Source: Dehalococcoidia bacterium
GTDB taxonomy: Bacteria > Chloroflexota > Dehalococcoidia > Lucifugimonadales > UBA2985
Direction of reading: 5' to 3'
Length of the DNA stretch: 64,000 nt
Assembly: GCA_965261605.1 (NCBI GenBank)
Contig: OZ253466.1
Location: 1,440,819 to 1,504,818, forward strand
Shown: positions 39,317 through 58,982 of the stretch, piece by piece
Numbering within the stretch: position 1 is the stretch's first letter
Layout of the letters: each line of letters opens with the position of its first letter
Position numbers and translations under genes: made by a program
The notes under the pieces: generated by a model
What the model saw: the letters and a program-made list of their open reading frames with translations, nothing else
Told to the model about the DNA's origin: nothing
Databases searched by the model: none

Positions 39317-41792
39317 TTGAAGAGGTATTTATTCGTCGTCGTCTTGGCTCTAGCTGTTACGGCTGGTCTGGCCTGTCGCGATTCTGTGCCCACGCCAACT
39401 CAAACACTGGGGCCCGAGTTGACAGCGGCGCCGACCGCGACACCTACTTCTATTCCAATGCCCTCGCCCACCCCAACTGCTACTCCGACATCAACTCCGA
39501 TACCCGCGCCTGAGCCGACCCCGACCATTCCTTCAACGCCAATGCAGACACCCACGCCTACCCCGGCAGGAGAGCGGATAGACTGGACCCGGTGCGAATC
39601 ATCCGATCTTGAGTGCGGATTTATAGAAGTCCCCGCTGACTACCGTGACCCCGAGGCCGGCAGCATCAGAATTGCGGTCAACGTGCATCGGGCCACGTCT
39701 CCGCAGGAACGGATAGGTTATCTATTCTTCAATCCTGGTGGTCCGGGCGTGAGCGGAGTAGATTTTGTCAACTATCTTCCACTCCTAGGGTTCACAGATG
39801 AAATCGTCGCGCATTTCGACTTCGTCGGCTTCGACCCACGCGGAGTCGGAGCGTCCGAGCCTGCGTTCGCGTGTGGCGACCGCGGTGAGCAGCTCGCGCT
39901 GCTTGCCACGATTGACGGGAACATAGACACCCCCGACGAGATAGCGGCGGGGGAAGCGGCCGCCAACCTGTGCATCCAGTCAATGGGTCCGGTCGGCGGT
40001 CTGTTGCACAGCGAATATGTCGCCAGGGACATGGATGAAATACGCAAGGCCCAAGGCCCTAGGCGCCGATCAGATTTCCTACCTGGGATTCTCCTACGGG
40101 TCTGTGTTGGGGGTCTGGTATGCAACGCTCTTTCCCGAGTCGGTTAGGGCAATGGTTGTCGACGGCGCCGACAATCCGGTTGACCCGGCCGCCACCCAAC
40201 AGGAACGCATTGACGAGGCAATCGAGGAGGTCGCACCGTTAGCTGCCTTCCTGGAAAAGGCGCTGACAGCGTGCGCTGGTCCGGAATGCCCCATATACAA
40301 CGACGGCGACCCGGTTGACTACTTCAAGCAGGCTGCAGCGAAACTGGACCTTGTCAACGCTGCGGCGGACGATAATCCCGACGCGGGCCTAGCTGGGGTG
40401 ATCTCGACCCTGTACAGTGAGGAGGACTGGCCCGGCCTGTGGCAAGGCCTGTTCGAACTCAACGAGAACGACGACCCGTCTATTCTTCTCGATTTCGCCA
40501 GGAGAAACCTGCCCCCGGAACCCGACGCTGCCGACTTAACTGGCCACATCAATTGCCTAGACCGCTGGGTCTTGTATCCGGAATTGGACCGCACCATACA
40601 GCTGGACGACTCCATACCCATTGCCGCCACCATTGAGGAAATGTTCCCCTTGCTGGCGGCAATAGGGTTTCCCTTGGTGGCGGCAAGAGGCCCCTCGTTC
40701 CTCAGCCCCTGCCCGTTCTACGACCAGTTCGCCCCCGAACCGCTTGAGGGGACTCTCGACGGCGGAGGCGTGCCGATACTGGTAATCGGCAACCACTCCG
40801 ACCCTGTTACTTCGTTCAGTGAATCCGAAGAGCTCGTAACGGAGACGCTCAGCAACGGCTACCTGCTGGAAACCTCTCACTTTAAGCACACTGTCTACCC
40901 TGAGAACAACTGTGTTAACGACCATGTCCACAGGGCGCTGATTGACGGCGTTTACCCAAGTGAGCGTCGGCTCTTCTGCGAGGAGGAAGCCGGCCCAACT
41001 CCATCGGAGCCGACCGCCACTCCGGAGACTCCGCCGACCGGGGAGTTTGCCTCCGTCAGCGCCGGGGGAATCCACACCTGCGGCGTTAAGACCGACGGCT
41101 CGGTAGCCTGCTGGGGGTATGACGATTCTGGCCAGGCCACGCCACCGGCCGGGGAGTTTGCCTCCGTCAGCGCCGGGGGAGGCCACACCTGCGGTGTGAT
41201 GACCGATGGATCGGTGGCCTGCTGGGGCTATGATGATTCTGGCCAATCCACTCCGCCGGCCGGGGAGTTTGCCTCCGTCAGCGCTGGGGGATCGCACACT
41301 TGCGGCGTGATGACCGACGGCTCCATCGCCTGCTGGGGCATTGACATCTTTCGCCAGGCCACTCCGCCGGCCGGGGAGTTTGCCTCCGTCAGCGCCGGGG
41401 GATCGCACACCTGCGGGGTGATGACCGACGGCTCCGTCGCCTGCTGGGGCGATGGCGACTTTAGCCAGTCCACACCTCCGGCCGGGGAGTTCGCCTCCGT
41501 CAGCGCCGGTGGATTGCACACCTGCGGTGTGAAGACCGACGGCTCGGTGGCCTGCTGGGGCGATGGCGACTTTAGCCAGTCCACACCTCCGGCCGGGGAG
41601 TTCGCCTCCGTCAGCGCCGGTGTATCGCACACCTGCGGGGTGAAGACCGACGGCTCCATCGCCTGCTGGGGCAATGGCGACTTTGGCAAGTCCACACCTC
41701 CGGCCGGGGAGTTCGCCTCCGTCAGCGCCGGTGTATCGCACACCTGCGGGGTGAAGACCGACGGCGCCGTCGCCTGCTGGGGGGGCTACTAG
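39317..41792 (+). pseudogene. Lipoprotein alpha/beta-hydrolase (tripeptidyl-aminopeptidase-like) fused to RCC1-like repeats, disrupted
   Basis: Lipobox LAVTAGLAC, PT-rich linker, nucleophile GFSYGS, and seven 37-aa repeats. The frame is broken by the 7-bp tandem duplication at 40045-40058, and there is an in-frame TAG at 41790. Confidence 0.7.
40045..40058 (+). repeat. 7-bp tandem duplication (AAGGCCC)x2 causing a frameshift
   Basis: cgc aaggccc aaggccc taggc. Removing one copy gives [20 protein letters not shown] as one continuous frame. Confidence 0.85.
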
Positions 41793-42109: not shown

Positions 42110-43555
42110 TTACCCTGTGACTGCGAGTACCTGCCCCTTACTGCCCGCGTTCGAGCCGGTTCGGTGTAGAGCAGCATCCTCTACAGAGTCGCTTGGCACA
42201 TCTGCACCCAGTGCCGCTGTTGCGTCTGCGTCCCGACTGTGCCCGTTCGACGGTGATGACGACTCAGAGTAGGACAGTATCTGGGACAAGACCCGACCAT
42301 GTAGATAAGTGAAGTAAGTGGGGAACGCCTCCCCTACCAGATTCCGAACGAGGTAGGTCGTTCTATTCTCTCGTGCTCGTGTCCAGTCGTAGAACCTGGG
42401 AACGGTCTGTAGGTCGGCACACTCAAGGATGCTGAGAACCCTGTTCTCCCATGGATGAATTTTGAAGTCACTACCGACATGGCTTGAATTGGTAGTGATA
42501 GTGTACGCGGGCCTGCTGGGATTCATTCGTCGGTAGCTTGAGTGGAAGCCCCTAACCAATGACGGGGTCCCGTTTCTATCGACATACGGCCTGTTTCGCA
42601 TGATCCCGTTGCAAGAAGGGCATGTCGCCCAACCCTCTTCTACTGGCTGGTGATCGCACGAGGGACACATATCGTTCTCGTAGGCGCTCCGCCCAGAGTA
42701 CGGAGGAATTTGGCTGATCTGCTGGTAGCGGTCTGGGCCGTAAGCGGGAACGAAGTGCAGTGGGTGCGTACCATGCGCCGTGTCTTTGGACTTCGCGTCC
42801 AGCGGTTCGTACTTCATTGCTTCGAGCCATTGCCGCACACTCACCCACGATTGCATACCATTGGCCGGCTTCTCCTGGTGGGTCGGACTTGGCCAGGGAT
42901 GATGGTCTCGTGACAGCAATCGTTCGAGCCCTTGCTCGTCCTTGTGTATAGCCACGACCAATGCCCGCCTTCTGACCTGAGGTATGCCATAATCGGCCGC
43001 GTTCACCACCCCGGGAAACACTTTGTACTCGGGCAGAAGTTTGTGAAGAATATCAACTGCCGTGCCCTTTGTACCCTCGTACTCAACGTCGAGGGTCAAT
43101 ACCTGGCGAACGTTTTCGATGACGATTATCCTCGGCTTGAGTAGGCGTGCTATCGGGATGACTTCCAGCAACAGCCGGTTCTTTTCTTCCAGAGCCTTCG
43201 CCTGCGGCGTCTGCCGCTTGCCCCTACTTGGATTCGAGCTGCTCATGCCCTGGCACGGGGGAGTAGCTACCAGCAAGTCCAGCCGCCTGGTTGTGGACCG
43301 GCGATATGCCACCGTGATCGCACTCCCACTGTCGCGGGCGTCGCAAGTAAGCCACTGAGAAGTGGGGAAGTTATCGGCGCCAATGGCAGCTCGCCTCTGG
43401 TCGACCTCGACCTGGACGATGAAGCGGAACCCGGCCATCTCGTACCCCATGTCGCTCAAGCCGGCACCTGAGAATAGGGAAACGGCAGTCAAGTGGGCAT
43501 CATCCATCGGCCTTTCCCGTAGTATGAATTCACGAACGAGCTGGCTAGACACCAT
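42110..43555 (-). CDS. dcm: DNA (cytosine-5)-methyltransferase
   Basis: Motif I LFSGAGL, motif IV PPCQGMS, motif VI ENV, motif VIII QVRRRALV. Confidence 0.9.
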   Translation of the reverse strand: MVSSQLVREFILRERPMDDAHLTAVSLFSGAGLSDMGYEMAGFRFIVQVEVDQRRAAIGADNFPTSQWLTCDARDSGSAITVAYRRSTTRRLDLLVATPPCQGMSSSNPSRGKRQTPQAKALEEKNRLLLEVIPIARLLKPRIIVIENVRQVLTLDVEYEGTKGTAVDILHKLLPEYKVFPGVVNAADYGIPQVRRRALVVAIHKDEQGLERLLSRDHHPWPSPTHQEKPANGMQSWVSVRQWLEAMKYEPLDAKSKDTAHGTHPLHFVPAYGPDRYQQISQIPPYSGRSAYENDMCPSCDHQPVEEGWATCPSCNGIMRNRPYVDRNGTPSLVRGFHSSYRRMNPSRPAYTITTNSSHVGSDFKIHPWENRVLSILECADLQTVPRFYDWTRARENRTTYLVRNLVGEAFPTYFTYLHGRVLSQILSYSESSSPSNGHSRDADATAALGADVPSDSVEDAALHRTGSNAGSKGQVLAVTG

Positions 43556-44018
43556 CTTCTCCTATGTCGGAGGTAGGCTTCTCTAGAGAAGCAGCGTGTA
43601 TTACCGGAACCAGGCGGTCAACGGTCTCAGCGAGTTCCGCTTTGGTTCTGACTTCGTGCTCCGGAATACGAACCACTGTCCAGCCAGCGTCCGTAAGCCA
43701 TCTCGTGACTTGAAGGTCTCGGTCTCTATTGGCGCTTATCTTGTTCACCCAGAATTGGCCGCTCAGACCTGAGTGCTTGCGGCACTCGGGACAGCCGTGC
43801 CAGAAGCACCCGTCAACAAAGATAACAATCCTTTTTTTAGGTAATACCATGTCAGGGTTCCCGGGGAGTCGCTCACCTGTAACGGACTTGTAACCCTTGT
43901 GTGTAAAGTATCGCACCCCTCTGCGCCACAACCCCGACGCCAGTGCTCTCTCCGGTCGAGTTCTTCCTCGGTTGTGCGCCATCGCCTTGTGCCTCTGATG
44001 GGGCGTCATGATGTCCAT
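43545..44018 (-). CDS. vsr: Very short patch repair endonuclease
   Basis: ...TRPERALASGLWRRGVRY...PDMVLPKKRIVIFVDGCFWHGC...W.VVRIPEHE. Start placed at ATG 44018. Confidence 0.85.
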   Translation of the reverse strand: MDIMTPHQRHKAMAHNRGRTRPERALASGLWRRGVRYFTHKGYKSVTGERLPGNPDMVLPKKRIVIFVDGCFWHGCPECRKHSGLSGQFWVNKISANRDRDLQVTRWLTDAGWTVVRIPEHEVRTKAELAETVDRLVPVIHAASLEKPTSDIGEDGV

Positions 44019-44022
44019 TGGA

Positions 44023-45996
44023 CTAGGTATCGACCTCAGGGATAGTCTTATCGTTCTCTTCAACTGACGGGCTCCTGCTGACTCGCGTGACCTCTAACCA
44101 ACCGGTATGAAGTCGCTTGGTGTTCTCAATCACACTGTCCCATGTTTGAAACTCAAGCCTAACTTCTCTTACTTGCTCTAAGCTCCTTCTAGTCCTATCT
44201 GCCCTCTCAGTGTACCCACTAGCGACCATAAGGCCACTAACCGACGGAGGAGCAGTGTTTAAACTGTAGTTGGCGTAAACTCCGAGCACGTAGGAATGAA
44301 ACTTGTTGACCTCTTCTTCGCTCACCCTGTGTATGCTCCCGTTAGCTTTGACGCCTCGCTTGATCTCAACGACGAGTATCTCGTCGAAGGGAGCTGGTGC
44401 CTGCGGCCTCAAAATGAACAGGAAGTCTAGCCGTTGTCCAGTCTCGTCATCGAGAGTTGGTTCATAGTGTTCTTGTAAAGTCGCAGGGTCTATTTCGTCT
44501 CCTAGAAGGCTCCACCTCGGATCGAGAATCCAAGGGAATTCCTTGATGACGTTGTGTATTTCTGGAACCTCAGTGGCTCCCGCTTTTATTGCGGCACCTA
44601 GCCGGTCAATCGTGCCAAGCCTAGCTTGAATAATGCTGTAGTTCTTTCTGGCATCAATCAGTGAAAACTCTCGGACGAGTCCCCAAAAGTTGCTTTGAAA
44701 CCCTTCATCCTCAAATTGGACACGTTCCATGAGTTCCCGGACCGCCTTGTCCTTAAAACCATCGATTACTTCTACCATAAAATCGTGAACTTCACTTGGT
44801 TCAGGGTCCCCGATTTGAGATACTTTCCGTGCAATATCTCCGAGATGTCGCTGCTCGGTTGCAGTAAAATCCTTCAGCAATTCCAGGATGTCTGGAACGT
44901 CGATAGATTTTTCGGCTTTCTTCTGACGGAGGTTTTGTCGTTGAGACAAAGCCCAATTCAGCCTACGACGACCCCATTGCAATAGTTCCTGTACCCTGTC
45001 GTCTTCTAGCTGAAGCTGGTCCCGGTTTGTCTGGATCAAGTCGTCTTCAATATCAGTCCCAGTGTCCAACCAGTCCGCGACTACTTCACCAACTACATAC
45101 TCCTGCCCAAGTTGGCCTCTAACTCCTTGTGTGCGTTCGAACATAAAGGGTCTTTGGAGGAGTTTCCGTCGTCCGATAATAGAAATACCTCGCAAGTATT
45201 CCGCGTCCAATGGCTTCGGTGTAAAGCCGATCCACCAACGAACTTCTTTCCCGTCGGGCAATTGCTCTGTTCCCCACCCATCCTGTCCAACTACCACTGA
45301 ATATCCTGCGGGTGTGCCGTCCTTTGGGAATCGAAACTCTAAGTCCATGTCGAATCGTTGTAGTTGGTTCTCGTTGATGAATACAGTCATGTCAGTTTGG
45401 TCGATAGCGAAGCGGCGAGACATAGACCTCATGAACTGGTCTTCAGAAATGGCCCGCTTTAGCCGAAGACGCGACAGCCGAATCCTGGTTCCACTCGGAA
45501 GGTTCGATCCGTCTGGTGCGCCAAGCGGCCCTTGGGAGGCAGTTTCCTTCACCTCGCAATCGGCACCAGGGGCTGACCTCCGTATTTCTTGGTAATCGAG
45601 TTGAAACGACACTTCTTCGTCGCCACGTACCGAATAGCAGTCAAGTATTTCAGCTGTTCCGAAAGCCGCGAGCTTGCCTATCCCTTTGCGACCGTGAACT
45701 GGTCGGCCGCCCTGAGTTTGTCCTCCGTCCTGAAGCCGTCGCTTACGACCGACTATCAGGTATTGCGACTGGGCTTGTTCCCTGGTCATCCCATGGCCGT
45801 CGTCTAGAACTTCAATCTCGCCATCAGTGGTCCAAGACTGGCCGAAAGGGATCTTGACCCAAACGTTGTGGGCATCCGCATCCCATGCGTTAGATATGAG
45901 TTCAGCCACTGTCGCTGTAGCGCTTGGGTATAATTGGGCCCCCAATTGCTCGACAAGTGCCCCAACGAATTTTAGTTTGAGTGTCTCTTGAGCCAT
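44023..45996 (-). CDS. GHKL (HATPase_c_3 / paraMORC-like) ATPase fused to a C-terminal PD-(D/E)xK nuclease-like domain
   Basis: N box ELISNAWDA, G1 DDGHGMT, G2 GRKGIGKLAAFG. C-terminus EFPWILDPRW...GQRLDFLFIL...ILVVEIKRG. ATG 45996 is preceded by AGGAGG with a 5-nt spacer. Confidence 0.7.
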   Translation of the reverse strand: MAQETLKLKFVGALVEQLGAQLYPSATATVAELISNAWDADAHNVWVKIPFGQSWTTDGEIEVLDDGHGMTREQAQSQYLIVGRKRRLQDGGQTQGGRPVHGRKGIGKLAAFGTAEILDCYSVRGDEEVSFQLDYQEIRRSAPGADCEVKETASQGPLGAPDGSNLPSGTRIRLSRLRLKRAISEDQFMRSMSRRFAIDQTDMTVFINENQLQRFDMDLEFRFPKDGTPAGYSVVVGQDGWGTEQLPDGKEVRWWIGFTPKPLDAEYLRGISIIGRRKLLQRPFMFERTQGVRGQLGQEYVVGEVVADWLDTGTDIEDDLIQTNRDQLQLEDDRVQELLQWGRRRLNWALSQRQNLRQKKAEKSIDVPDILELLKDFTATEQRHLGDIARKVSQIGDPEPSEVHDFMVEVIDGFKDKAVRELMERVQFEDEGFQSNFWGLVREFSLIDARKNYSIIQARLGTIDRLGAAIKAGATEVPEIHNVIKEFPWILDPRWSLLGDEIDPATLQEHYEPTLDDETGQRLDFLFILRPQAPAPFDEILVVEIKRGVKANGSIHRVSEEEVNKFHSYVLGVYANYSLNTAPPSVSGLMVASGYTERADRTRRSLEQVREVRLEFQTWDSVIENTKRLHTGWLEVTRVSRSPSVEENDKTIPEVDT

Positions 45997-46010
45997 CAAT
46001 TCCTCCTGAC

Positions 46011-46616
46011 TCAACAAGCCCTTTCGAAATAGTCCAAGACATCGGTGTGTCTCACCACCCGCGCCCCTAAACCCCGCAGGTTAGCGTTCCCCGGGCTGTC
46101 CAGCGTCAGCATCGGCTTACCAGAGGCGGCGAGATTGCGAGCGAAGGCTTCCGTCTTGCTGCCAGGGGCGGCATGGGCGATGAAGACTTGGGCTGCTAGA
46201 TCGGCCACCAAGTCGTTGCGGCGAGCGGCGACATCCGCCTTTGGGCGGCGGACCGTCGCGGGGAAGGGCGAGAGGACCAGCAAGCGGTCTTCGTCTAGGG
46301 CTGTGCGCCAGTCGCGGGGGATGCGCATGTTGTCGATGCCCCGAGCGGGGCAGACGACCACTGGCTGCTCACCCCGGAGCAGCCAGCGCAGGCACTCCCG
46401 CTCCATCGGCGTTTGGAAGCCTCCGATGACCGGCACGCCGGCGTCGCGCATGGCCCTTGCGAGGTCGTAGGTCTTGAGGATGAGGTCGCCGGGGCAGCGG
46501 TTGGAGCAGAAGAGGGCCGTCAGCGGCTCGTCGAGCAGGCGCAGATTGCCCCGGGCCGCCGTATTCGGCGGCAGCGAAGTCATGGTCTGACAGCTACGGA
46601 CAGCGGGCGGTCTCAT
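46011..46616 (-). CDS. Stand-alone DprA/Smf-like (SLOG-fold) protein
   Basis: TALFCSNRCPGDLILKTYDLARAMRDAGVPVIGGFQTPMERECLRWLLRGEQPVVVCPARGI...LLVLSPF...RRNDLVADLAAQVFIAHAAPGSKT follows the DprA Rossmann pattern. ATGA overlap with the upstream gene. Confidence 0.6.
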   Translation of the reverse strand: MRPPAVRSCQTMTSLPPNTAARGNLRLLDEPLTALFCSNRCPGDLILKTYDLARAMRDAGVPVIGGFQTPMERECLRWLLRGEQPVVVCPARGIDNMRIPRDWRTALDEDRLLVLSPFPATVRRPKADVAARRNDLVADLAAQVFIAHAAPGSKTEAFARNLAASGKPMLTLDSPGNANLRGLGARVVRHTDVLDYFERAC

Positions 46617-46981
46617 ATCGGCAACACCCGGACCCGGTTTCGGCTTTCGTCAACCACGACCAAGGCTCCGGAGGACAGGTCGGCCTCATGCTGGTTGAGA
46701 GCCGCGATGACCGAGCTCTCCAGGTAGTCCGGCAGGACATTCTCGGCGCGGACCTGAAGCACACTTGGGCCGACGTTATGCGTCAGCGCCAGCATGGTGC
46801 CGAAGTCCAGGTCGTGGGTGAACACTACGCATTGGTGAGTAGCTGCCCAATCCATGATGTCCCTGTCGCTAGCCCTTGGATCGCCAACGTCGGACCAGTG
46901 TACTGCCTGCCATCCGTGCTTCTGCAGCGCCGGTACCCATTCGGGTGATAGGTTCATGTCAACGAGGAGCGTCGGCCTCAT
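46613..46981 (-). CDS. DUF5615-type PIN-like toxin (putative)
   Basis: MRPTLLVDMNLSPEWVPAL...VVFTHDLDFG. ATGA overlap with the DUF433 gene. Confidence 0.6.
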   Translation of the reverse strand: MRPTLLVDMNLSPEWVPALQKHGWQAVHWSDVGDPRASDRDIMDWAATHQCVVFTHDLDFGTMLALTHNVGPSVLQVRAENVLPDYLESSVIAALNQHEADLSSGALVVVDESRNRVRVLPI

Positions 46982-47223
46982 GACGTTGAGAGGGGGACTT
47001 CCCGTTCCTCCAGCCTCCAGGCGGCATAGGCCAGGGATTGGTCGATGTCCTCCCTTTCAAGATACGGATAGGCCTTGAGGATTTCGGTAGGTGAGCGACC
47101 GGCCGCCAAGAGACCCACAACCGTCCCGACCGTTACGCGCATTCCACGGATGCACGCCTTACCGCCCATGACGGCAGGGTCGATGGTAATTCTTTCCAGT
47201 GATTTCATGATCTCCCCTTCCAC
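46978..47223 (-). CDS. DUF433-type antitoxin (putative)
   Basis: ITIDPAVMGGKACIRGMRVTVGTVVGLLAAGRSPTEILKAYPYLEREDI. Confidence 0.65.
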   Translation of the reverse strand: MEGEIMKSLERITIDPAVMGGKACIRGMRVTVGTVVGLLAAGRSPTEILKAYPYLEREDIDQSLAYAAWRLEEREVPLSTS

Positions 47224-47271: not shown

Positions 47272-47505
47272 TCAGCGGCCCCATGCTTCCTTCTCTTCTG
47301 CCAAGTAGGCCGCCACGTCTGCGGCCGTCTTGAAGACCAAGTGCCCTGGCGCTTCGTCCAGAATGTCAACGGCAGACCGGCGTTCTGACGCCGCCGACTG
47401 GCTAACAACCACGTCAACGGACTCCCCCACGGGAAGCCCCTGGTCCACGATCTCGATCTTGCCGCCCGGCAGTACCGTCGTTCTTATGTGCAGTACCTTT
47501 TGCAT
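47272..47505 (-). CDS. Hypothetical small protein (antitoxin-like)
   Basis: 77 aa, MQKVLHIRTTVLPGGKIEIVDQGLPVGESVDVVV... Its first 64 nt are repeated at 48031-48094. Confidence 0.4.
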   Translation of the reverse strand: MQKVLHIRTTVLPGGKIEIVDQGLPVGESVDVVVSQSAASERRSAVDILDEAPGHLVFKTAADVAAYLAEEKEAWGR

Positions 47506-47540: not shown

Positions 47541-47750
47541 CTACGCTTGGTCGAAGTCCTCCCGGCTGATGTCCAAGTCTCTTCGGATGCCGTGAAGGGT
47601 CCCCGTGGCCAGGTCCCGTTTGCCGTGTCTGGGAACGGTGGTTTCCTGGTTGTTGGCTGGGTTGATCCAGATTTCGTGCGATCCTCCTGCCTGGCGGTCA
47701 AAGGCGCATCCGAGCCTTCTGAGCTTCCTCGTCAGTTCTCTATAGGTCAT
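47541..47750 (-). CDS. hicA: HicA mRNA interferase toxin
   Basis: MTYRELTRKLRRLGCAFDRQAGGSHEIW...VPRHGKRDLATGTLHGIRRDL. Confidence 0.85.
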   Translation of the reverse strand: MTYRELTRKLRRLGCAFDRQAGGSHEIWINPANNQETTVPRHGKRDLATGTLHGIRRDLDISREDFDQA

Positions 47751-47992
47751 ACAGCCACAGATATCCTGCCCTCTCCGGTCTGGGATCGAGCTATCCCCGC
47801 AGGCAGGGATTTGCCCCGTTCCCTGTAGGAGAGGATGAATTGCTCAGCCACCGTGCACAGTTCGGCCAGGGTCTGGTTGGCGTTCTCCCCCCACGCACGG
47901 CACCCGGGCAATCCCGGTATCTCTGCCATGTAAAGCCACCCCTGGTCTTCACGGGGTTCGTGCAGTACATAGTCCAACTGGTACAGTTCCAT
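47747..47992 (-). CDS. hicB: HicB antitoxin
   Basis: ...GWLYMAEIPGLPGCRAWGENANQTLAEL... (UPF0150/HicB N-domain). ATGA overlap with hicA. Confidence 0.75.
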   Translation of the reverse strand: MELYQLDYVLHEPREDQGWLYMAEIPGLPGCRAWGENANQTLAELCTVAEQFILSYRERGKSLPAGIARSQTGEGRISVAV

Positions 47993-48155: not shown

Positions 48156-48674
48156 TCATTCAATTCCCAACCGCTTGTCCAGCAGCACTACGAATGATCG
48201 TGCCAAAGATGTCCCAACGAACGCTGTTTGGCCGATGGCGACCACACCAAATGCAACCAAGAATAGGTACTTCGAATCAATACCTAAGAAGACTGCTTCA
48301 GAGCCAACAGTCGCAGCATACCGATGGAGTGTCGAGTCGAGAGCAAAAAGCAGCCCCAGCAAGACACCTACGTAGAATGTCAAAACAAGTAAGACATAGG
48401 TGACATGCCCCATACTCCATATCGATGCTTGCACCAATGATAACTTTCGCATGGCATCATTCTCTGCAGTAGCCTCCCACCATCCTGACAGGCTTGCATA
48501 AAAACCTAGCGCCAAAGCAATGCCCAACCAAAGTTCCAGGAGTTCACGTGTGATAAATGGCATATCCGGGTTCCATTCGTAAGTGTGTTGAAACGCTAGC
48601 AGCAAGAGTGCTAGTAGAGAAAGAAGCCATATTACCCGGAAAAACCATGCAGTTTTTCTCCCGCCGTCGTTCAT
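48156..48674 (-). CDS. Hypothetical integral membrane protein (~5 TM)
   Basis: 172 aa and strongly hydrophobic. Co-oriented downstream of the methyltransferase. Lower GC (45-58% in sampled lines). Confidence 0.5.
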   Translation of the reverse strand: MNDGGRKTAWFFRVIWLLSLLALLLLAFQHTYEWNPDMPFITRELLELWLGIALALGFYASLSGWWEATAENDAMRKLSLVQASIWSMGHVTYVLLVLTFYVGVLLGLLFALDSTLHRYAATVGSEAVFLGIDSKYLFLVAFGVVAIGQTAFVGTSLARSFVVLLDKRLGIE

Positions 48675-48717
48675 CGCTCTCTGACACCTTTTTCGTTAAT
48701 GCTTAATGATTCAGTTC

Positions 48718-48996
48718 TCATCGCCTTCCCGTAAGCCTGTAGTAGGCGGGATAGACTACCGCCGCAGCCAGTAAGATACCAATGCCGCCCATTAGAACCA
48801 TGGCCATTCCGAAGTCTAGAACGTACAGAACAATCCTGTTCGCCAACTCCGCGTCTTTTGCCTGTTCCACCACTATGTTATGAACAAGTTCGCTCCACAA
48901 TTGGCGAGTCAATGAGAAGATAAACGCGTCGATGACTAGTCCCAAGACGATCGTAATTGCAAATAGTAGTCTTGCTTCGCCCACCATAACCTCCAT
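48718..48996 (-). CDS. Hypothetical small membrane protein (2-3 TM)
   Basis: 92 aa, starting 11 nt after the methyltransferase stop. Confidence 0.45.
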   Translation of the reverse strand: MEVMVGEARLLFAITIVLGLVIDAFIFSLTRQLWSELVHNIVVEQAKDAELANRIVLYVLDFGMAMVLMGGIGILLAAAVVYPAYYRLTGRR

Positions 48997-49007: not shown

Positions 49008-52000
49008 CTATCCCTCCCGCCCCATGCGGTATTTGATGTCGTAGTTGATGATGAAGTCCAGTTCCTCATCCGTGAAGCCGTAGTGCTCGGCCAGCATCCG
49101 GTCAACGTTGTCGATGAAAGGCTTTGCCGATGCCGGACTGAATCGTTGGTACTCAACCGCCCCGCCGATGTTGTACGTCGCCGCCTGAATATCTGAGTTT
49201 TCTTCAAGGCAACTGATTATCTGATGTGCGGATTTCTGCAAGAGGGATACACCATCAGCAATCGAGTCCGGAATAGGTATCGACTCCAAATCAGAAGGGT
49301 TGAAGTCCCTGCAATTCGTGCGCGCTTGATACAGCCAGTAGTGAAACGTACTCCAGAGCAAGCAGAAGACGGTGTCTCTTATGAGTGGATTTGGAAAGCA
49401 GACGCTGCTTTCACGAGTAGACGACCCTTCTATTCCGTCCCGCCAGAATCGAGGTGGAGACGTTGTGAAGGTAAACCAGCGGTTCACTCCAGTGATCTTG
49501 TAATAGATGCGATGCTCAGTTGGCGTGGCAGAAATCAGACTTCCAAGGGTAGTGGGCAGACTTAGCACCTTGCGATAAATGTTAAGGTCCGTCTGTGAAC
49601 GAAGCTTCGGAATTACTTCGCCAGGAATGGCAACAGGAGCGAACTGATACTGCACAAGGTCGAGAAGACTTGGAGTCTCTTCCTTGTACCACTTGTGATA
49701 TCTAGTAGTGGCAGTGGTGCGATGTTGTTTAGAAGTGCCTTTGCAGTGCAAAACGATACAGACCCGACAGTTGTTCATACCTTGAAACAGCTTTGAAGGA
49801 CGATCATTAAATATGGCATATGAGGTGAATTCCGAATGCTGGTAGAGAAGCTCTCGCAATTGAGACATGCGCTGTGTTGAGACAACTGGAGCTTGCACGA
49901 TAAAGCCTAGTCGTCGACCTGAGCCAAGTAGATTGGAGCTCCTCTCCGCACAGAGAGCATAGAGATTGCCACACTGCTCTGTTTCGAACCCTCGAATCTC
50001 ATACTCCCTGCGAATCTTGCTGTATTCCACGTACGGCGGGTTGCCAATGACGACGTCAAAGCCACCCCTAGCCATGATGCCGTAGAACTCCGCGAACCAG
50101 TGGAAGGGCTGGTGGCCGTTGCGCCAGGCGTCGTAGGTGGCGGTTTTCTTGGGGTCCACGCCGTACTCGGCGGCTAGGAGACGGTCCAGTTCGTTACCCA
50201 GGCTCTGCAGGCGGTCGCGCAAATCCTTCTTGTGTTCGGCGGTGACCTCTCCGCCCAGCGCGGTCTGCTGCTCACGGAAGCGATCGAAGGCGCGGCCGGC
50301 CACGTCGGCGTCCTCCTCTATGCGGGCCAGCGTCCTTTGCTGCTCTTCGTCAAGCGCCCGGTATTGGCCGTTGGGCATAACCGTCATGGCCTGCCGCACA
50401 GCGTCCAGGGAGGTGAAGCCGACGAGGGTGTTGCCCGCGCGGATGTTGAAGTCTATGTCCGGCAGCGGCTCTATCTGGTCATAGGTTTCGAGCTGGGCCA
50501 CGAGCTTCAGGAAGAGGCGCAGTTTGCAGATCTCCACCGCCTCTTCCATGATGTCCACGCCGTAGAGGTTGTTGAGGACAATGGACTTGAGAATGAAGTA
50601 GCGCTCGCTGGGATGACCGTCCGCCTCATCCAGCACCTTGCGAAAGTCCTCCAGGAAACTCGCGCTGCGCTTGTGCTCGGACCTTTCGGCGTCGTCCAGA
50701 AAGCCGCGCATCCCCTCCAGACAGGCGGTATAGAGGGGTTCCAGAATGTTCAGGGCAGCGAACAGGAACGCGCCTGAGCCGCAGGTGGGGTCGAGGACCG
50801 ACACGTCGCGCATAGCGTGCCAGAAGGCGCGCAGGAGGTCATGCCCTGCGCTCTGGGCGATGACGTCCCTGGCGAACCGCTCAATGTCCAGGTTCAACGT
50901 GATGAGGTCGTTGACATTCTGCGCCTCGCCCGACGCGAGCTTGGCCCTAACCTCTTCATAACGGGTGCGGCGAGCCACGACCTCGCGCCAAGTCTCGGTT
51001 GGTAGCGCGTAGTCGTCCGGCGCGGGCCGGTTCCAGCCGCCGCGCTGCGACACATCGCCGATGCCGGCGGCGATGTCGTCCGGCAGATGGAAGGGAGTGT
51101 CGAGGGGCTTCGGGTCTTCGGCCTGCCGCGCGTTCCAGGTGATGCCGTGGCCAACGGCGGGGTAGATGTAGCGGTCGGGGTCGTCCCGCAGCAGCCGCCA
51201 GACGCCGCCGTCCGGCCCGAAAGCCACCGGGCACTCCTTCCGAGCGGCGTCGAACAGGAAGGGGATGACTGTGTTCCGCGAGATGTAGCCGGTGATGTCC
51301 TCCTTGGTGTAGTAGGCGCCCATCTGCTTCTGGTTGACGTACTTCTCGAAGATGTAGCCAAGCACGTCCGGGTTGATCTCGTTGTCCTTCTTGCCGGGGC
51401 GGTCGTCCAGGTGCCAGGTGTAGCCGTCGAAGAAATCGAAGACCCTCTCGAAGGCGGCGTCGGGGATGGAGATGTCCGGGTTGTCCTGCTCCAAGGCGTG
51501 CTGGTCGAACAGGCCGCCGTTGAGGAAGGGCACTTTGCCCAGCAGCGCGATGAGGTCGGGCGTGCGCTGGGCTTCGGGCAGCGCCAGGCCCTTGTGGAAC
51601 AGCCGGAGGAGGAAGATGCGATAGAACTGCTGGAAGCGCCCGCCACCGCTTTGGTTCCGGACCGTGCTCAGACGGTTGCGAAGATAGTCCGGGTCACCGT
51701 CCAGAAAGTTCTTCTTCTGGATGAAGTAGACGAACATCATGCGGTTCAGCATGAGGGAAGCGTACCAGTCCCGGTCGCCCTGGGCGGTGATGCCCTCGAT
51801 GAAGTTCCCGAAGGCGGTCAGCTCGGCCCGGAAGCGTTCATAGAAGCGCTTGGTGACCTTCTCAACGTCGAAAACCTTGCCGACGAGAGAGACAACGTCG
51901 GTAATCCCGATGCCCTTGGCCTCGTCCTCCAACGTAAACAAGAAGTTATCGAGGCGCTGCAAGAGTGGCTGCCCCGTTTGGCCGGCATAGAAGCGATGCT

Positions 52001-52349
52001 CTCGGCAAGCGGTTGGTTTTCCGGCCTGCCTCTTAACCCATTGCCAAACTTGCTGCGTGCGGGCTGCGTCGACAAAGATGATGAGGTGCTCAAAGGCCCG
52101 CTTTGTGACTTGGGTCTCTATCTTGCGCCGCAACGGGTAATCGGGAATAGCGCCATCGGACCCTGGGGCGCATTGAAAGACGGCGAACTCCGCCTTTTTC
52201 GCTACGGGCCTGAGCGCGTACTCGAAGCCGTCCACAGGGATGGCTAGTGATTCACCCTGGAAGTGGTCCCAACCCAGGCCCTCCACGAAGAGACGCGGAA
52301 AGTCGAAAGCCTGTAGGTGGGGCCGTAGCTCTTCAATGGAGACTGGCAT
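49008..52349 (-). CDS. Large Eco57I/type IIG-like N6-adenine DNA methyltransferase with C-terminal recognition domain
   Basis: 1113 aa. FLNGGLF, motif I VLDPTCGSGAFL, motif IV VIGNPPYVEY. Its ATG overlaps the helicase TGA by 1 nt (TGATG). Confidence 0.85.
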   Translation of the reverse strand: MPVSIEELRPHLQAFDFPRLFVEGLGWDHFQGESLAIPVDGFEYALRPVAKKAEFAVFQCAPGSDGAIPDYPLRRKIETQVTKRAFEHLIIFVDAARTQQVWQWVKRQAGKPTACREHRFYAGQTGQPLLQRLDNFLFTLEDEAKGIGITDVVSLVGKVFDVEKVTKRFYERFRAELTAFGNFIEGITAQGDRDWYASLMLNRMMFVYFIQKKNFLDGDPDYLRNRLSTVRNQSGGGRFQQFYRIFLLRLFHKGLALPEAQRTPDLIALLGKVPFLNGGLFDQHALEQDNPDISIPDAAFERVFDFFDGYTWHLDDRPGKKDNEINPDVLGYIFEKYVNQKQMGAYYTKEDITGYISRNTVIPFLFDAARKECPVAFGPDGGVWRLLRDDPDRYIYPAVGHGITWNARQAEDPKPLDTPFHLPDDIAAGIGDVSQRGGWNRPAPDDYALPTETWREVVARRTRYEEVRAKLASGEAQNVNDLITLNLDIERFARDVIAQSAGHDLLRAFWHAMRDVSVLDPTCGSGAFLFAALNILEPLYTACLEGMRGFLDDAERSEHKRSASFLEDFRKVLDEADGHPSERYFILKSIVLNNLYGVDIMEEAVEICKLRLFLKLVAQLETYDQIEPLPDIDFNIRAGNTLVGFTSLDAVRQAMTVMPNGQYRALDEEQQRTLARIEEDADVAGRAFDRFREQQTALGGEVTAEHKKDLRDRLQSLGNELDRLLAAEYGVDPKKTATYDAWRNGHQPFHWFAEFYGIMARGGFDVVIGNPPYVEYSKIRREYEIRGFETEQCGNLYALCAERSSNLLGSGRRLGFIVQAPVVSTQRMSQLRELLYQHSEFTSYAIFNDRPSKLFQGMNNCRVCIVLHCKGTSKQHRTTATTRYHKWYKEETPSLLDLVQYQFAPVAIPGEVIPKLRSQTDLNIYRKVLSLPTTLGSLISATPTEHRIYYKITGVNRWFTFTTSPPRFWRDGIEGSSTRESSVCFPNPLIRDTVFCLLWSTFHYWLYQARTNCRDFNPSDLESIPIPDSIADGVSLLQKSAHQIISCLEENSDIQAATYNIGGAVEYQRFSPASAKPFIDNVDRMLAEHYGFTDEELDFIINYDIKYRMGREG

Positions 52350-55300
52350 CAGCGGTTGTCCTCACTGTCGAACAGCCCCAGGGAGCAGATGATCTGCGGT
52401 TCCTGGGCCTCGGCAACTGCGTTCCCCGTTAGGCAGAGCCTGTCCTCCTCACGCAGCGACATGACGATTTCGGCCAACTGGTCGTCGGAGACGCCGCTGC
52501 GGAGCTGCCGGTTCAGGGTGTCCACTGCCGACGGGCGCAGAGGATAGCGGTAGATGTCGTCGATGGCCTTGTGCAGCGCCTCCACGTCGAACAGCTGGCC
52601 CTTGATGGCCTCCGCGTACTGCTTGAGACGGGTGTACGTGCGGAAGCGAGCGCCGGAGGGCCGCCCGAGCTGGCCGCCGACTCGCTTCTCCTCCCTGACG
52701 AGGTGACCGACCCCGTCGGCGACGAGGCGATGGTGGCTCTCGTGATGAGGCTGCGCAGGGGTGTCCGGCCTGCACTCGGCGGCGGCGAGGATTTCAAGCT
52801 GCGACTCGGTGATGCTGTGACCCTCGCGGTCCACGTAAGCCAGGGCGTCGTTCCCGTCCGCCGTGCGCATGAAGACGAGGACGCCTTCGGGCCGCTGGGC
52901 GATGGGCGTGTGCTGGCGAGACGAGAACACGACGTCGGGCAGGTCGGCGACGGCCTTCTCCAATCGCGGGTCCGCGCTCGTAGCGTTCTTCCAGATCTGG
53001 TAAGCGTGGGACGCCAGGTCAACCTCACCGTCGGGGTCGCCGTCCAGGATGCCGGCGCGCTCGTTGTAGAGGTTGACGATGGTCTGGCTATCGGATTCAT
53101 CTTCGAAGAAAGCCTCGTCCGCGCCAACGACCTCCGCGTTTTCCCGAAGCCGCGTCCGAACGCGGTTACGCAGGTTGATGATACGCTCTACGCCGTCGGC
53201 GGGCAGGAAGGAGTGGCACAGAATCTCCTCCGCCTTCTGCCCTATGCGGTCGACGCGGCCCGCCCGCTGGATAAGACGGATGATGGCCCAAGGCAGGTCG
53301 TAGTTGACGACGACGTGGCAGTCCTGGAGGTTCTGGCCCTCGCTGAGTACGTCGGTGGCGACCAGGACGCGAAGCTCCTGTTCCGGTTTGTCCTGGCCCG
53401 GCCGCTGGTTGCTGTTGGGGCTGAATCGCCGTGCAAACTGCGTGGGGTCGGCGGAGCTGCCGGTGACGCCCGCCATAGCCTCCACGCCTCTGCCCTTGAG
53501 CTGCGACTCAAGGTAGAAGACCGTATCGGCGAACTGGGAGAAGACCAGGACCTTCCGGTCCGGGAACGTCTCCATAAGGAGCGTGTGGAGCGCGTCGAGC
53601 TTGGCGTCGTGACGCGGGTCCCATGCGCCGTAGGTCTGGAGCAGGTCCAGGAGGGCGTTGGAGTCGGCCTGGAGTTCGCTCTCCAAGGAATCCCGAAAGA
53701 GGTCGGAGCGGAGCCACTTGAAGCGTCTCCTATAGCGGCCCTCGTAATCCGCGTATATAGCGGCGGCGCTCGCTTCGAAGCCGGCCGCAGTCCAAGCGCC
53801 GCCGGTCTCCTGGACTTCCTCTTCCTGCTCGTCATCGTCAGGGTCGAAGAGTGATCCCCTCGCCTGGTCTGCGTCTTCGTCGGTGAAGCGGGAATCCAGC
53901 ATCTCGGCGTCCTGCGTGCCAAGGGGCAGCGGCAGGCCATTCTGGAGGGCGTGAAGGAAGACATAGTTTCGGAGAACGTGACGTTCGACGGATTGCAGGA
54001 AGGCCGCGCCGCTGCTTTCCAGGCGTTTGAAGAGGTTCGTACGGCAGAAGCCCATCAGCCGCTTCCCGGCCCGTGAGAGGTCGTTTATTTGGCGATCCTC
54101 GGCAGTAGTGGGCGGCGTCCCCGGGTTGTCAGCGACGTAGTTGCCAAGGCCGTATCTTGGCAGATGCAGATTGTTCACCGTATCGACCACCTGTTGCGAG
54201 TACAGCTTGGCGTACTGGTCATCTGGATTGGACTCGTCGATGGCGAATTTGACTGTCTTAGGAATACGGGTGGGGAAGAACGATTGGGTTCCGTCCTCGT
54301 AGGTGAGGAACTTTCGCCCTGTCTCCTGTTCCGTCTCCGCGTAGTTGTCCTGGATGAAGCTGCGGGTGCGGCGCACGAGGTAGAGTCTCATCAGGTCCCG
54401 CCAGTCATCTGCGTGCTCACTGAAGTCGAAGGCCGCCAGGGTGCGCGGCGAGGCCTGGTGGCGCCTGCTGAACTCGATCTCGCCCAACTCTCGCAGGAGT
54501 CGTTCGGGGCGGATGCCCAGGTCTTGGTCTTCCTCAACGAAGATGCGCAGTTGGCTGGACAGGTCCAAGTACGTCTTGTTGTAGGGCGTAGCCGATAGGA
54601 GAATGCACTTGCTCTCGTTTGCGTGTACGTACTCTTGGATTGCCCGATAGCGGCGGCCCTCGCGGTTTCGAAGGTTGTGACTCTCGTCAATGACAACCAG
54701 TCGGTAGCGGCGTAGGGTGGGCAGCTCGCCGAGCACCCTGCTGAGGGACAGCACCCTGGCCCGCAGCTGGTACTGGTACACGTAGTCTTCCCACATGGGG
54801 ACGAGGTTCTTGGGGCAGATGATAAGCGTCTCCAGCCCGTAGTCGTCCTCGAAGATGCGAGCGACGGCGGTAGCCATGAGTGTCTTGCCAAGTCCCACCA
54901 CATCCCCGATGAGCACGCCGTTGCGCTTGTTCAAATGGTGGGCCGCGATCTTGACTGCGGCGGCCTGGAAGTCGAACAGCCGGTCGCCGAACACCTTGGG
55001 AATCCTGAACTCGGCAAGACCGGCGCGGGCCTCGTGAGAGAGGTGGTAGGCCATCTTGAGGTAGACGTGGTAGGGAGGAATGAGCGCTTCCCGCGCCCAA
55101 CTCTCTTCGATGATCTGAAGCAGCTCGTCCGTGATGTCAACACAGAAGCGGTCGCTCCACCTGTCCTCGAACCACTGCGTGAGCTTGAGAGCGGCGTCGT
55201 GGTCGAGCACGTCCACGTTCAACTCGCCTTGCCCGGAGAGCCCTGCGAAGGTCAGGTTGCTGCTTCCCAGGTAGCCGACGATGGGGTTGACGGGGTCGTC

Positions 55301-55744
55301 TCGGAACAACAGGTAGAGCTTCGCGTGCAAAGGATGACGTAGGAAGAGCTTGACAACGACCTTCTTGGCGCGAAGCTGCTCGGCCAACTGCCGTAAGGTC
55401 CGCTCGTCGGCGTTGGTAGGCGCACCCATGGTGAGCTGCTGGCGGAGTTGCTCGGCCAACTGGACTCTGAGGCGATGCGCCGTCTGGTTGTCCATGCCGG
55501 AGGGCCTGTCGACGAGGCTTAGCATCTCCCGGAGCTCCTCGTGGGGCAGACGCTGCATCCCGATGAGGACGCGGCACGGGCCGTCGTCGTCACTCCAGTC
55601 GTCCACGCACGGGGCAAGACCGCCCCAGCCTCGCAGGTTGAAGTAGCCGACGCAGAAGTCCGCACGCGAAGAGAGCGCCAGAGTCTCTTGCAACGCGGGC
55701 AGTAGGCTTGAATCAGGCGCAAGGTTGTCGAAGATACGCGGCAT
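52349..55744 (-). CDS. PLD-nuclease domain fused to SNF2-family helicase
   Basis: PLD HxK motif HAKLYLLF...GSSNLT. Helicase motifs GDVVGLGKTLMA (I), VIDESHNLRN (II), LLSATPYNK (III), QRAGRVDRIGQ (VI). Confidence 0.85.
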   Translation of the reverse strand: MPRIFDNLAPDSSLLPALQETLALSSRADFCVGYFNLRGWGGLAPCVDDWSDDDGPCRVLIGMQRLPHEELREMLSLVDRPSGMDNQTAHRLRVQLAEQLRQQLTMGAPTNADERTLRQLAEQLRAKKVVVKLFLRHPLHAKLYLLFRDDPVNPIVGYLGSSNLTFAGLSGQGELNVDVLDHDAALKLTQWFEDRWSDRFCVDITDELLQIIEESWAREALIPPYHVYLKMAYHLSHEARAGLAEFRIPKVFGDRLFDFQAAAVKIAAHHLNKRNGVLIGDVVGLGKTLMATAVARIFEDDYGLETLIICPKNLVPMWEDYVYQYQLRARVLSLSRVLGELPTLRRYRLVVIDESHNLRNREGRRYRAIQEYVHANESKCILLSATPYNKTYLDLSSQLRIFVEEDQDLGIRPERLLRELGEIEFSRRHQASPRTLAAFDFSEHADDWRDLMRLYLVRRTRSFIQDNYAETEQETGRKFLTYEDGTQSFFPTRIPKTVKFAIDESNPDDQYAKLYSQQVVDTVNNLHLPRYGLGNYVADNPGTPPTTAEDRQINDLSRAGKRLMGFCRTNLFKRLESSGAAFLQSVERHVLRNYVFLHALQNGLPLPLGTQDAEMLDSRFTDEDADQARGSLFDPDDDEQEEEVQETGGAWTAAGFEASAAAIYADYEGRYRRRFKWLRSDLFRDSLESELQADSNALLDLLQTYGAWDPRHDAKLDALHTLLMETFPDRKVLVFSQFADTVFYLESQLKGRGVEAMAGVTGSSADPTQFARRFSPNSNQRPGQDKPEQELRVLVATDVLSEGQNLQDCHVVVNYDLPWAIIRLIQRAGRVDRIGQKAEEILCHSFLPADGVERIINLRNRVRTRLRENAEVVGADEAFFEDESDSQTIVNLYNERAGILDGDPDGEVDLASHAYQIWKNATSADPRLEKAVADLPDVVFSSRQHTPIAQRPEGVLVFMRTADGNDALAYVDREGHSITESQLEILAAAECRPDTPAQPHHESHHRLVADGVGHLVREEKRVGGQLGRPSGARFRTYTRLKQYAEAIKGQLFDVEALHKAIDDIYRYPLRPSAVDTLNRQLRSGVSDDQLAEIVMSLREEDRLCLTGNAVAEAQEPQIICSLGLFDSEDNR

Positions 55745-58610: not shown

Positions 58611-58654
58611 GTCTTTCTCCTTTTATTAGAGTGTGTTGCGTTCCGTCCAAACAA

Positions 58655-58720
58655 GGCGAGGCCCCGCGGTCCCTCATGAACAACGGGGCCTCGTGGGATA
58701 CGGCTCGGTAGAGCCGTCTA
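58655..58720 (-). repeat. Intergenic stem-loop unit, subfamily I, copy 1
   Basis: On the coding strand: TAG, small hairpin acggct/agccgt, then GAGGCCCCG...CGGGGCCTC. Confidence 0.7.
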
Positions 58721-58936: not shown

Positions 58937-58982
58937 CCTTCGGCCTCTCTTTCCTTTATTGGGTGTTTGCGTGTCCGATTGA

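Follow-up and report, generated by a model that had tools for sequence, protein, structure and literature searches.

A Densely Packed Six-gene Cluster in a Dehalococcoidia Genome Is Probably a Defense-island Mosaic of Three Independent Units

Results

Gene Content and Junctions of the Locus

The locus described here lies in a 64,000-nucleotide stretch of contig OZ253466.1 from a Dehalococcoidia bacterium, referred to throughout as the window (w-prefixed coordinates, and those given without a locus number, are positions within it, and L-numbered loci are related loci collected for comparison). In the open reading frame (ORF) list of the window, the dcm, vsr, GHKL, DprA-like, DUF5615/PIN_10 and DUF433 genes all lie on the minus strand at 42110-47223. 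An earlier, sequence-only reading had taken these six genes for a single new module. The analysis presented below leads instead, with good confidence, to a defense island in which three independent units lie side by side as a mosaic, namely a toxin-antitoxin (TA) pair, the last gene of an upstream operon and a mobile 5-methylcytosine (m5C) restriction cassette. The six genes and the junction of the cassette are listed here.

42110-43555, minus strand: Dcm, an m5C DNA methyltransferase of 481 residues, gene 3 of the restriction cassette (Pfam DNA_methylase, 1.8e-33)
43545-44018, minus strand: Vsr, a very-short-patch repair endonuclease of 157 residues, gene 2 of the restriction cassette (Pfam Vsr, 2.6e-20)
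44023-45996, minus strand: predicted GHKL restriction endonuclease of 657 residues, gene 1 of the restriction cassette (Pfam HATPase_c_3, 4.2e-17)
45997-46052, minus strand: left junction of the restriction cassette, comprising the GHKL ribosome-binding site and the last ∼14 codons of the DprA-like gene
46011-46616, minus strand: stand-alone DprA/SLOG-fold protein of 201 residues, gene 3 of the upstream trio (Pfam DNA_processg_A, 1.8e-07)
46613-46981, minus strand: putative DUF5615/PIN_10 toxin of 122 residues (Pfam DUF5615, 5.9e-25; PIN_10, 1.1e-06)
46978-47223, minus strand: putative DUF433 antitoxin of 81 residues (Pfam DUF433, 3.3e-25)

A Pfam scan returned a family match for each of the six ORFs, which backs every domain assignment made from the sequence alone. 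The junctions were read directly and are arranged as had been described, with ATGA start/stop overlaps at 46978-46981 and 46613-46616, a gap of 14 nucleotides in which the TGA of the DprA-like gene is followed by GTC AGGAGG AATTG and then by the GHKL ATG at 45996, a spacing of 4 nucleotides between the GHKL TAG and the vsr ATG (44018), and an overlap of 11 nucleotides between vsr and dcm. Alternative TTG starts are open for vsr at 44063 (called at ATG 44018) and for the GHKL gene at 46017 (called at ATG 45996). The start of the DprA-like gene is also uncertain, given that a second ATG is present at 46583 and that conservation within the family begins at residue ∼14-17, behind variable N termini; the real start may thus lie elsewhere than at the ATGA overlap with the PIN-like gene. 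The same 4-nucleotide overlap of DUF5615 and DprA-like genes was seen again in L072.

No terminator-like site was found between the six genes, and promoter and terminator scans performed at or below shuffle expectation, so that the transcription units are not delimited. Neither a tRNA nor an Rfam family was found in the window, which leaves it with no obvious integration-site marker. Tight packing, overlaps, a single coding strand and the lack of internal terminator-like sites all favor one integrated module, in which a DprA-like sensor would control a methylation-protected, ATP-dependent GHKL nuclease and the TA pair would stabilize the whole. Genes that are neighbors in an operon often overlap briefly, and overlap alone is no proof of common function.

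The base composition of the cluster is uneven. The DprA-like gene has 66.7% GC and a GC content at third codon positions (GC3) of 0.80, and the GHKL gene has 50.9% GC and a GC3 of 0.51, against 59.1% GC for the window. The GC mosaic and modular assembly noted from the sequence alone were borne out by these values. An Eco57I-like methyltransferase gene further upstream and the DprA-like gene (GC3 0.75-0.80) look native, whereas the restriction cassette (GC3 0.51-0.65) looks foreign.

The Restriction Cassette and Its GHKL Enzyme

The GHKL protein matched NCBIfam NF050001 (BbrUII/HgiDII family restriction enzyme) over its full length, with residues 14-637 aligned to positions 9-645 of the 659-position profile (E 2.8e-70), and was also matched by two REBASE-derived REase_II models of PADLOC (1.1e-32 and 9.2e-28). 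The score of the NF050001 match, 237.6 bits, lies under the equivalog cut-off of 550. Given this score, the protein is filed as a sister clade of R.HgiDII and R.BbrUII and not as an ortholog of the same specificity; as judged from the alignment, it is a homolog predicted to work like that family, and its recognition sequence probably differs from theirs.

The N, G1 and G2 boxes of the GHKL domain (ELISNAWDAD, DDGHGM and GRKGIGKLA) do not vary among 18 relatives. An AlphaFold2 (AF2) model of the protein (pLDDT 74.9) combines a MORC-like ATPase at the N terminus with a helical segment in the middle and a PD-(D/E)XK-like domain at the C terminus. The best PDB matches of the model were MORC3, MORC2 and MORC4, on whose ATPase modules the N-terminal ∼420 residues superpose with E values of ∼1e-11; a sequence search of PDB chains gave weak Hsp90 matches only and nothing useful. 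The C-terminal part, at residues ∼477-640, has an alpha-beta-beta-beta-alpha-beta core that carries invariant D524, E544 and K546. From motif and secondary structure, this domain would be a PD-(D/E)XK nuclease, which agrees with the nuclease-like C terminus proposed from sequence. Palindrome counts, observed against expected in 415 kb of cassette-bearing loci, revealed no clear target site; GTCGAC was observed 225 times against 285 expected, and many other palindromes were at least as depleted.

The two partner genes are of recognizable families. Dcm matched the PADLOC MTase_II model (8.4e-48) and contains motifs I, IV (PC), VI (ENV), VIII (QxRxR) and X, present as FSGAGL, PPCQG, ENV, QVRRR and GEAFP; it also has an insert resembling a Zn ribbon and a C-terminal tail of low conservation. 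Vsr scored 103.7 bits against TIGR00632, above the cut-off of 97.85.

Linkage of the Six Genes in Related Loci

Linkage was assessed from the side of the GHKL gene by a scan of one genome per species, which yielded 62 loci. Counts were made on the 51 that carry a full-length GHKL relative with at least 2.5 kb on each side, adjacency being defined as within 2.5 kb. A dcm gene was found near the GHKL relative in 49/51 loci and a vsr gene in 27/51; a DprA-like gene was adjacent in 5/51 and the DUF433/DUF5615 pair in 1/51. The five loci with a DprA-like neighbor hold the closest relatives of the GHKL protein (79-98% identity), and two of their DprA-like copies are remnants of ∼92 residues. At the sole locus with the TA pair (L025), the pair lies beyond dcm, on the opposite side. 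In 15/20 close relatives, an unrelated gene, such as a CN-hydrolase or a 2-hydroxyacid dehydrogenase, stands upstream of the cassette. In L004 and L025, a protein of ∼280 residues is encoded ahead of the GHKL gene; it was considered as a common component and rejected, one being a CN-hydrolase and the other having no match. The description of Dcm and Vsr as the core of an m5C system, in which the GHKL protein takes the place of the restriction enzyme, is upheld; the predicted linkage of the DprA-like gene and TA pair to the GHKL gene, on which a single six-gene module depends, is not.

Vsr is intrinsic to the cassette. Vsr and Dcm form one ORF of ∼580 residues in L003 (11962-13713), L007 (11962-13713), L012 (11956-13701), L013, L014 (11970-13703), L042 (11954-13750) and L071 (7648-9384), and the gene call of the L071 fusion contains the Vsr and DNA_methylase Pfam domains together. 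The window-type Dcm belongs to a longer lineage of 436-481 residues with the Zn-ribbon insert. Beside other GHKL relatives, such as those of L010, L011 and L023, Dcm has 365-372 residues and is only ∼25-29% identical to that of the window. In L010, L011 and L023 themselves (at about 12400-13570), where Dcm is 28% identical to that of the window, the enzyme and Vsr are conserved at 68-71% and 64-68% identity, respectively. On these identities, the arrangement is a methyltransferase replacement inside an otherwise conserved cassette. The clade of GHKL enzymes is frequent in Dehalococcoidia and in other metagenome-assembled genomes (MAGs), some of which are named as sponge-associated taxa. Loci L029, L032 and L045 are from Candidatus Poriferisodalis MAGs, a name that hints at sponge hosts.

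The context of the DprA-like gene was sampled in three ways, by exact-protein look-ups, in 80 metagenome loci (44-77% identity) and in loci chosen by the SNF2-PLD protein described in the next section. The exact-protein look-ups returned the order Eco57I-like methyltransferase, small TA genes, DprA-like gene and variable cassette. GHKL, Vsr or Dcm genes were found near the DprA-like relative in 0/80 metagenome loci.

The cargo behind the DprA-like gene varies. GHKL-Vsr-Dcm follows it in the window, L001, L002 and L003, and in L071 it is followed by a divergent GHKL gene and the Vsr-Dcm fusion; these cases, with the four genes kept at 93% nucleotide identity in L001, count in favor of one module. 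In L063-L074, the cargo is a 260-residue protein with no family match and a 622-residue QatC-like/DpnII-MboI fusion (L072, 5635-8291). In L156 it is HamA and a helicase, that is, Hachiman (17877-21384), and in L154, L155 and most metagenome loci housekeeping genes lie downstream. This variety of downstream neighbors argues against one module.

The boundaries of the exchanged segments could be placed from alignments. L001, a Dehalococcoidia MAG, is 93% identical in nucleotide sequence over w42040-46577, yet has no TA pair; the homology stops in codon ∼13 of the DprA-like gene and restarts at a 77-residue gene, at 47271. At the other end of the DprA-like gene, the conserved core ends at residue ∼188 (w∼46052), beyond which the tail codons, the Shine-Dalgarno sequence and the next start co-vary with the downstream cassette. 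Version A of the tail is found in the window, L001 and L002, and version B in L063, L072 and L074. Given this co-variation of tail and leader, the final ∼14 codons of the DprA-like gene, like the ribosome-binding site of the GHKL gene, belong to the sequence linked to the cassette.

An Upstream Operon That Contains the DprA-like Gene

The DprA-like gene is the third gene of a trio on the minus strand, the other two members of which lie outside the six genes discussed so far.

49008-52349, minus strand: Eco57I-like N6-adenine DNA methyltransferase with specificity region, 1113 residues, gene 2 of the trio
52349-55744, minus strand: PLD (HKD) nuclease-SNF2 helicase fusion of 1131 residues, gene 1 of the trio

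The SNF2-PLD stop overlaps the methyltransferase start by 1 nucleotide. The SNF2-PLD protein matched Pfam PLDc_2, SNF2-rel_dom and Helicase_C and the PADLOC model HKD+Snf2 (2.3e-47), and its translation shows HAKLYLL...GSSNLT and GLGKT; a sequence search of PDB chains returned generic SNF2 matches only. The methyltransferase matched Pfam Eco57I (6.4e-26) and, at full length, the PADLOC model REase_MTase_IIG PDLC03628 (1054.7 bits), and its motifs are intact: VLDPTCGSGAFL (motif I) and GNPPY/NPPY. An alignment of 9 sequences showed no conserved PD-(D/E)XK (D...ExK) motif in its N-terminal domain. The PADLOC label of Type IIG is for this reason doubtful, and the PLD domain of the overlapping upstream gene is the likely nuclease.

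The trio was recovered from both ends. Of the metagenome loci that were selected by the DprA-like protein and have at least 3 kb of upstream sequence, 32/41 encode a homolog of the methyltransferase ahead of the DprA-like gene, on the same strand. The adjacency holds at 44-63% DprA-like identity and in sediment, freshwater, mat and marine metagenomes, and the spacing in simple loci is 29 nucleotides, 30 nucleotides or a 4-nucleotide overlap. Each of the 12 loci with enough room has the PLD-SNF2 gene ahead of the methyltransferase gene, and the full trio was present in all three loci chosen by the SNF2-PLD protein alone (L154, L155 and L156). Given that the trio has housekeeping genes on both flanks in L154 and L155, it moves as a unit. 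Across more than 120 clusters, built at 90% identity, the SNF2-PLD protein (P0241-P0360) keeps at least 87% identity, and the contigs come from genomes that differ in size by as much as 2.1 against 5.8 Mb. This pattern of identity suggests that the trio spread horizontally and recently within one habitat.

At least nine cluster representatives of 688-770 residues (P0365, P0376, P0386, P0391, P0397, P0416, P0419, P0470 and P0473) join the methyltransferase N-terminal domain, a methyltransferase-like region and a C-terminal DprA-like domain in one polypeptide. Their N-terminal part has no Pfam match and is methyltransferase-like by BLAST against the window proteins; NPPY is replaced in both fusions that were inspected, P0365 and P0376. 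The fusions support a functional link between methyltransferase and DprA-like protein, and together with the conserved adjacency to the methyltransferase and SNF2-PLD genes they are the grounds on which the DprA-like gene is assigned to the trio. No account of the trio turned up in a literature search that covered sources other than the main SLOG survey (Burroughs et al. 2015), so an earlier description is possible.

Properties of the DprA-like Protein

The match of the DprA-like protein to DNA_processg_A is just above threshold (31.0 bits, cut-off 29.6). Canonical DprA was ruled out, with a score of 29 bits against the TIGR00732 cut-off of 191.15; the 201-residue protein is the Rossmann core only and has neither the flanking SAM domain nor the C-terminal winged-helix-like domain of canonical DprA. 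The AF2 model (pLDDT 84.6) adopts a DprA-type Rossmann/SLOG fold. DprA Rossmann domains were its best PDB structure matches (TM 0.70-0.73), followed by ShosA (8zva, TM 0.71) and then by LOG-type and molybdenum-cofactor carrier proteins. PADLOC returned a PsyrA match (1.3e-11) that covers residues 122-294 of the 398-residue PsyrA model, and a sequence search of PDB chains with the DprA-like and methyltransferase proteins gave nothing useful.

The family is large. One search returned 1592 matches, of which the best 120 are all at least 74% identical, and 333 cluster representatives were found at E≤1e-30 in a 50%-identity library. Matches on plasmids were discarded as irrelevant, since they consist of canonical 398-residue DprA from two records of Neisseria gonorrhoeae chromosomes.

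Genes Inserted between the Methyltransferase and DprA-like Genes

In the window, the trio is interrupted by 2.4 kb of small inserted genes, which include, in addition to the DUF433/DUF5615 pair, the following.

47272-47505, minus strand: u77, a putative antitoxin of 77 residues, an inserted gene that is orphaned in the window
47541-47992, minus strand: HicB-like/HicA TA pair (Pfam HicA_toxin, 1.4e-15; UPF0150-like, 5.1e-06)
48156-48996, minus strand: two inserted hydrophobic ORFs of 172 and 92 residues, GC 48-50%

DUF433 and DUF5615 scored above their Pfam cut-offs, at 88.1 and 87.7 bits, respectively, with the antitoxin gene first, and by family match they form a putative type II TA pair. The pair was also found in L072 beside a DprA-like gene with another downstream cassette and, as noted above, in L025 beyond dcm; it moves independently of its neighbors. 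In L003, L071 and L156, u77 is followed by an overlapping PIN-domain gene, a partner that the window does not have, and the protein resembles an antitoxin of the VapB type. A HicAB pair is found at the equivalent place in L063, L064 and L066. The 172- and 92-residue ORFs, immediately behind the methyltransferase gene, had no Pfam, NCBIfam or PADLOC match and are not at this position in L001. Insertions seen in the methyltransferase/DprA-like interval comprise HicAB, VapB-like with PIN, MNT/HEPN, DUF2283, DUF2442 and a cyclase of the cyclic oligonucleotide-based antiphage signaling system (CBASS). The SNF2-PLD and methyltransferase genes of L154 are separated by an IS21 element.

The cyclase is 16 nucleotides upstream of the DprA-like gene in L002 (8547-9395) and L003 (8513-9352). 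It was identified by Pfam SMODS, by the PADLOC Cyclase model PDLC00790 (2e-97) and by NF041117 (227.6 bits, cut-off 200). No recognizable effector was found beside it in either locus. No CD-NTase cyclase was present among the scanned ORFs of the window, which therefore does not classify as a CBASS locus, and neither a PsyrT (RecQ-like) nor a ShosT (phosphoribosyltransferase) toxin gene was found among the scanned window ORFs or in the related loci.

Other Features of the Window

Two further features flank the region. At 56259-60114, a 783-residue superfamily 2 (SF2) helicase (ResIII/Helicase_C) and a 345-residue DUF6094 methyltransferase (PADLOC mad2-like, 9.5e-16) are encoded on one strand; the two genes are also side by side in L033, at 65-66% identity, and by family content they may be another modification-based system. 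On the plus strand at 40017-41792, convergent with dcm, an alpha/beta-hydrolase and seven RCC1 repeats are combined in one protein; on the other strand, the repeats create long ORFs that are spurious (40557-41741).

Discussion

The six genes at 42110-47223 are probably a mosaic of three independent units that came together in a defense island. The identities of the domains, the matches to families, the linkage counts, the junctions of recombination and the fused proteins are what the data show directly. The full-length NF050001 match and the absent linkage are the two outcomes that the sequence-only reading had itself named as contrary to a single module.

The biochemical activities in the following scheme, and the role of the DprA-like protein, are those that we infer from sequence. 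Unit 1 (46613-47223) would be the DUF433/DUF5615 TA pair, one of several small TA modules that landed between the genes of unit 2. Unit 2, the SNF2-PLD/methyltransferase/DprA-like operon, would be an ATP-dependent restriction-modification-like system, in which the methyltransferase would mark the DNA of the host and the SNF2-PLD protein would move along unmarked DNA and cleave it. The DprA-like subunit would be a partner of the methyltransferase; by analogy with DprA and ShosA, its most plausible task would be to bind DNA or single-stranded DNA (ssDNA). Unit 3 (42110-45996, bounded on the left by the junction at ∼46052) would be a self-contained, horizontally mobile type II m5C cassette, in which Dcm would methylate cytosine at the recognition site, the GHKL/PD-(D/E)XK enzyme would cut unmethylated sites, and Vsr would repair the T:G mismatches that arise from deamination of 5-methylcytosine. 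This cassette appears to have recombined in right behind the conserved core of the DprA-like gene.

Several observations weigh against this division into independent units. The 14-nucleotide gap between the DprA-like and GHKL genes has no terminator; the cassette is probably co-transcribed with the upstream genes in this genome, where some regulatory coupling to them is possible. The GHKL protein falls short of the NF050001 equivalog cut-off, and eight relatives from other loci match that profile, likewise over its full length, at 215-270 bits, none reaching 550, so site-specific cleavage by this clade stands as a prediction from homology. The reciprocity test of the trio comprised three loci only, all with very close SNF2-PLD relatives (87-94% identity), and the cyclase of L002 and L003 offers the DprA-like protein another partner.

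With regard to the DprA-like protein itself, we tentatively propose, as a possibility somewhat short of an even chance, that it is an integral subunit of a compact and widespread restriction-modification-like trio, in which it would couple recognition of DNA or ssDNA, or RecA, to the methyltransferase or the nuclease, and that the conserved 3′ end of its gene serves as the anchor for cassette swaps. ShosA binds ssDNA and RecA (PMC12961424), which hints at what such a subunit could sense.

Quite unlikely, by comparison, is a role for the DprA-like gene as a conserved chromosomal edge marker of a recombination hotspot with no functional tie to its neighbors. The diverse cargo on both the upstream and downstream sides, and the variable N- and C-terminal tails that surround a very conserved core with cassette junctions at its ends, are what a marker of this kind would show. 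Against it stand the persistence of methyltransferase adjacency at 44-63% DprA-like identity in four metagenome habitats, with spacings from a 4-nucleotide overlap to 30-nucleotide gaps, the fusion of the two regions in at least nine clusters, and the occurrence of the trio between housekeeping genes in L154 and L155, from which it follows that the unit travels.

Burroughs et al. reportedly predicted in 2015 that SLOG domains are nucleotide sensors. A further alternative is that the DprA-like protein serves, as sensor or as effector, in a minimal CBASS-like system of two genes (CD-NTase and SLOG) and was orphaned in the window after replacement of the cyclase by the TA pair. The cyclase immediately upstream in L002 and L003, with no other evident effector, is in keeping with this, as are two short ORFs of 116 and 138 residues at the cyclase position in L071, which may be a broken cyclase. 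We nevertheless regard such a system as very unlikely. A cyclase is present in just 2, perhaps 3, of roughly 100 DprA-like loci; the core remains 74-85% identical over more than 100 clusters without any cyclase; adjacency and fusion indicate the methyltransferase as partner; and the methyltransferase/DprA-like interval gathers unrelated insertions anyway, as the neighboring SNF2-PLD/methyltransferase boundary has gathered the IS21 element of L154. Least probable of all is the one integrated module, which is largely refuted by the linkage of the GHKL gene to DprA-like (5/51) and TA (1/51) genes, and against which also stand the 0/80 metagenome loci and the lack of the TA pair in L001.

The GHKL restriction-enzyme family has been recognized since at least 2008. 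R.HgiDII was described as an N-terminal GHKL domain joined to a C-terminal domain of unassigned fold, and four more GHKL-containing restriction-enzyme subfamilies were catalogued, the enzymes being paired with m5C methyltransferases (Orlowski and Bujnicki 2008, PMC2441816); M.HgiDII and M.BbrUII are both of the m5C type (PMC5867850). The recognition site of BbrUII is not given in PMC5829577. The window protein resembles HgiDII and BbrUII in a length of ∼650 residues, an N-terminal GHKL/HATPase_c_3 domain and a collinear profile alignment, and its cassette resembles theirs in the C5-cytosine methyltransferase partner. It differs in its score of 237.6 bits against the equivalog cut-off, in the longer Dcm lineage and in the intrinsic Vsr, which is fused to Dcm in some relatives.

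Iyer, Abhiman and Aravind are said to have predicted in 2008, by comparative genomics, that paraMORC/MORC-like GHKL ATPases act in restriction-modification contexts. The MORC-type ATPase module of the window protein and the place of its gene in a restriction-modification operon fit that idea, which the sequence-only reading had invoked. The paraMORC class is broad and predicted, whereas the window protein belongs to a subfamily that already contains named restriction enzymes.

The nearest counterpart of the trio among described systems is the Type-2 BREX-related (BR; BREX, bacteriophage exclusion)/Hma system, which consists of an HKD-SNF2 helicase, an N6-methyltransferase, a DUF499 ATPase and DUF3780 (PMC12839542). 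Both place an HKD/PLD-SNF2 protein next to a large N6-adenine methyltransferase, with predicted ATP-dependent restriction-modification-like action. The trio methyltransferase, however, is of the Eco57I/MmeI type, and the conserved third gene is DprA-like instead. No DUF499 or DUF3780 gene was found among the scanned window ORFs or in the Pfam lists of L154-L156, and the BR/Hma paper (PMC12839542) makes no mention of DprA or SLOG. With ShosTA and PsyrTA the locus shares a stand-alone DprA-fold protein within a defense locus; here, by contrast, the protein is the Rossmann core only, its partners are the methyltransferase and SNF2-PLD proteins, and ShosT and PsyrT are absent. The DUF433/DUF5615 pair is an ordinary one of its kind, with both families above cut-off and an ATGA overlap.

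In summary, the cluster opens no new class of defense system. It adds a divergent clade to the HgiDII/BbrUII-type GHKL enzymes, a group with little enzymology so far, the C-terminal nuclease fold of which had never been assigned and here appears to be PD-(D/E)XK. The locus is also a clear case in which tight packing and start/stop overlaps stem from cassette insertion and not from common function. The trio, a useful by-product of the analysis, is the more interesting lead. If the DprA-like protein is truly a subunit, the trio would be a second defense context, after ShosTA/PsyrTA, in which a DprA fold links DNA sensing to an effector, and it would also correct the automatic Type IIG labels given to these methyltransferases.

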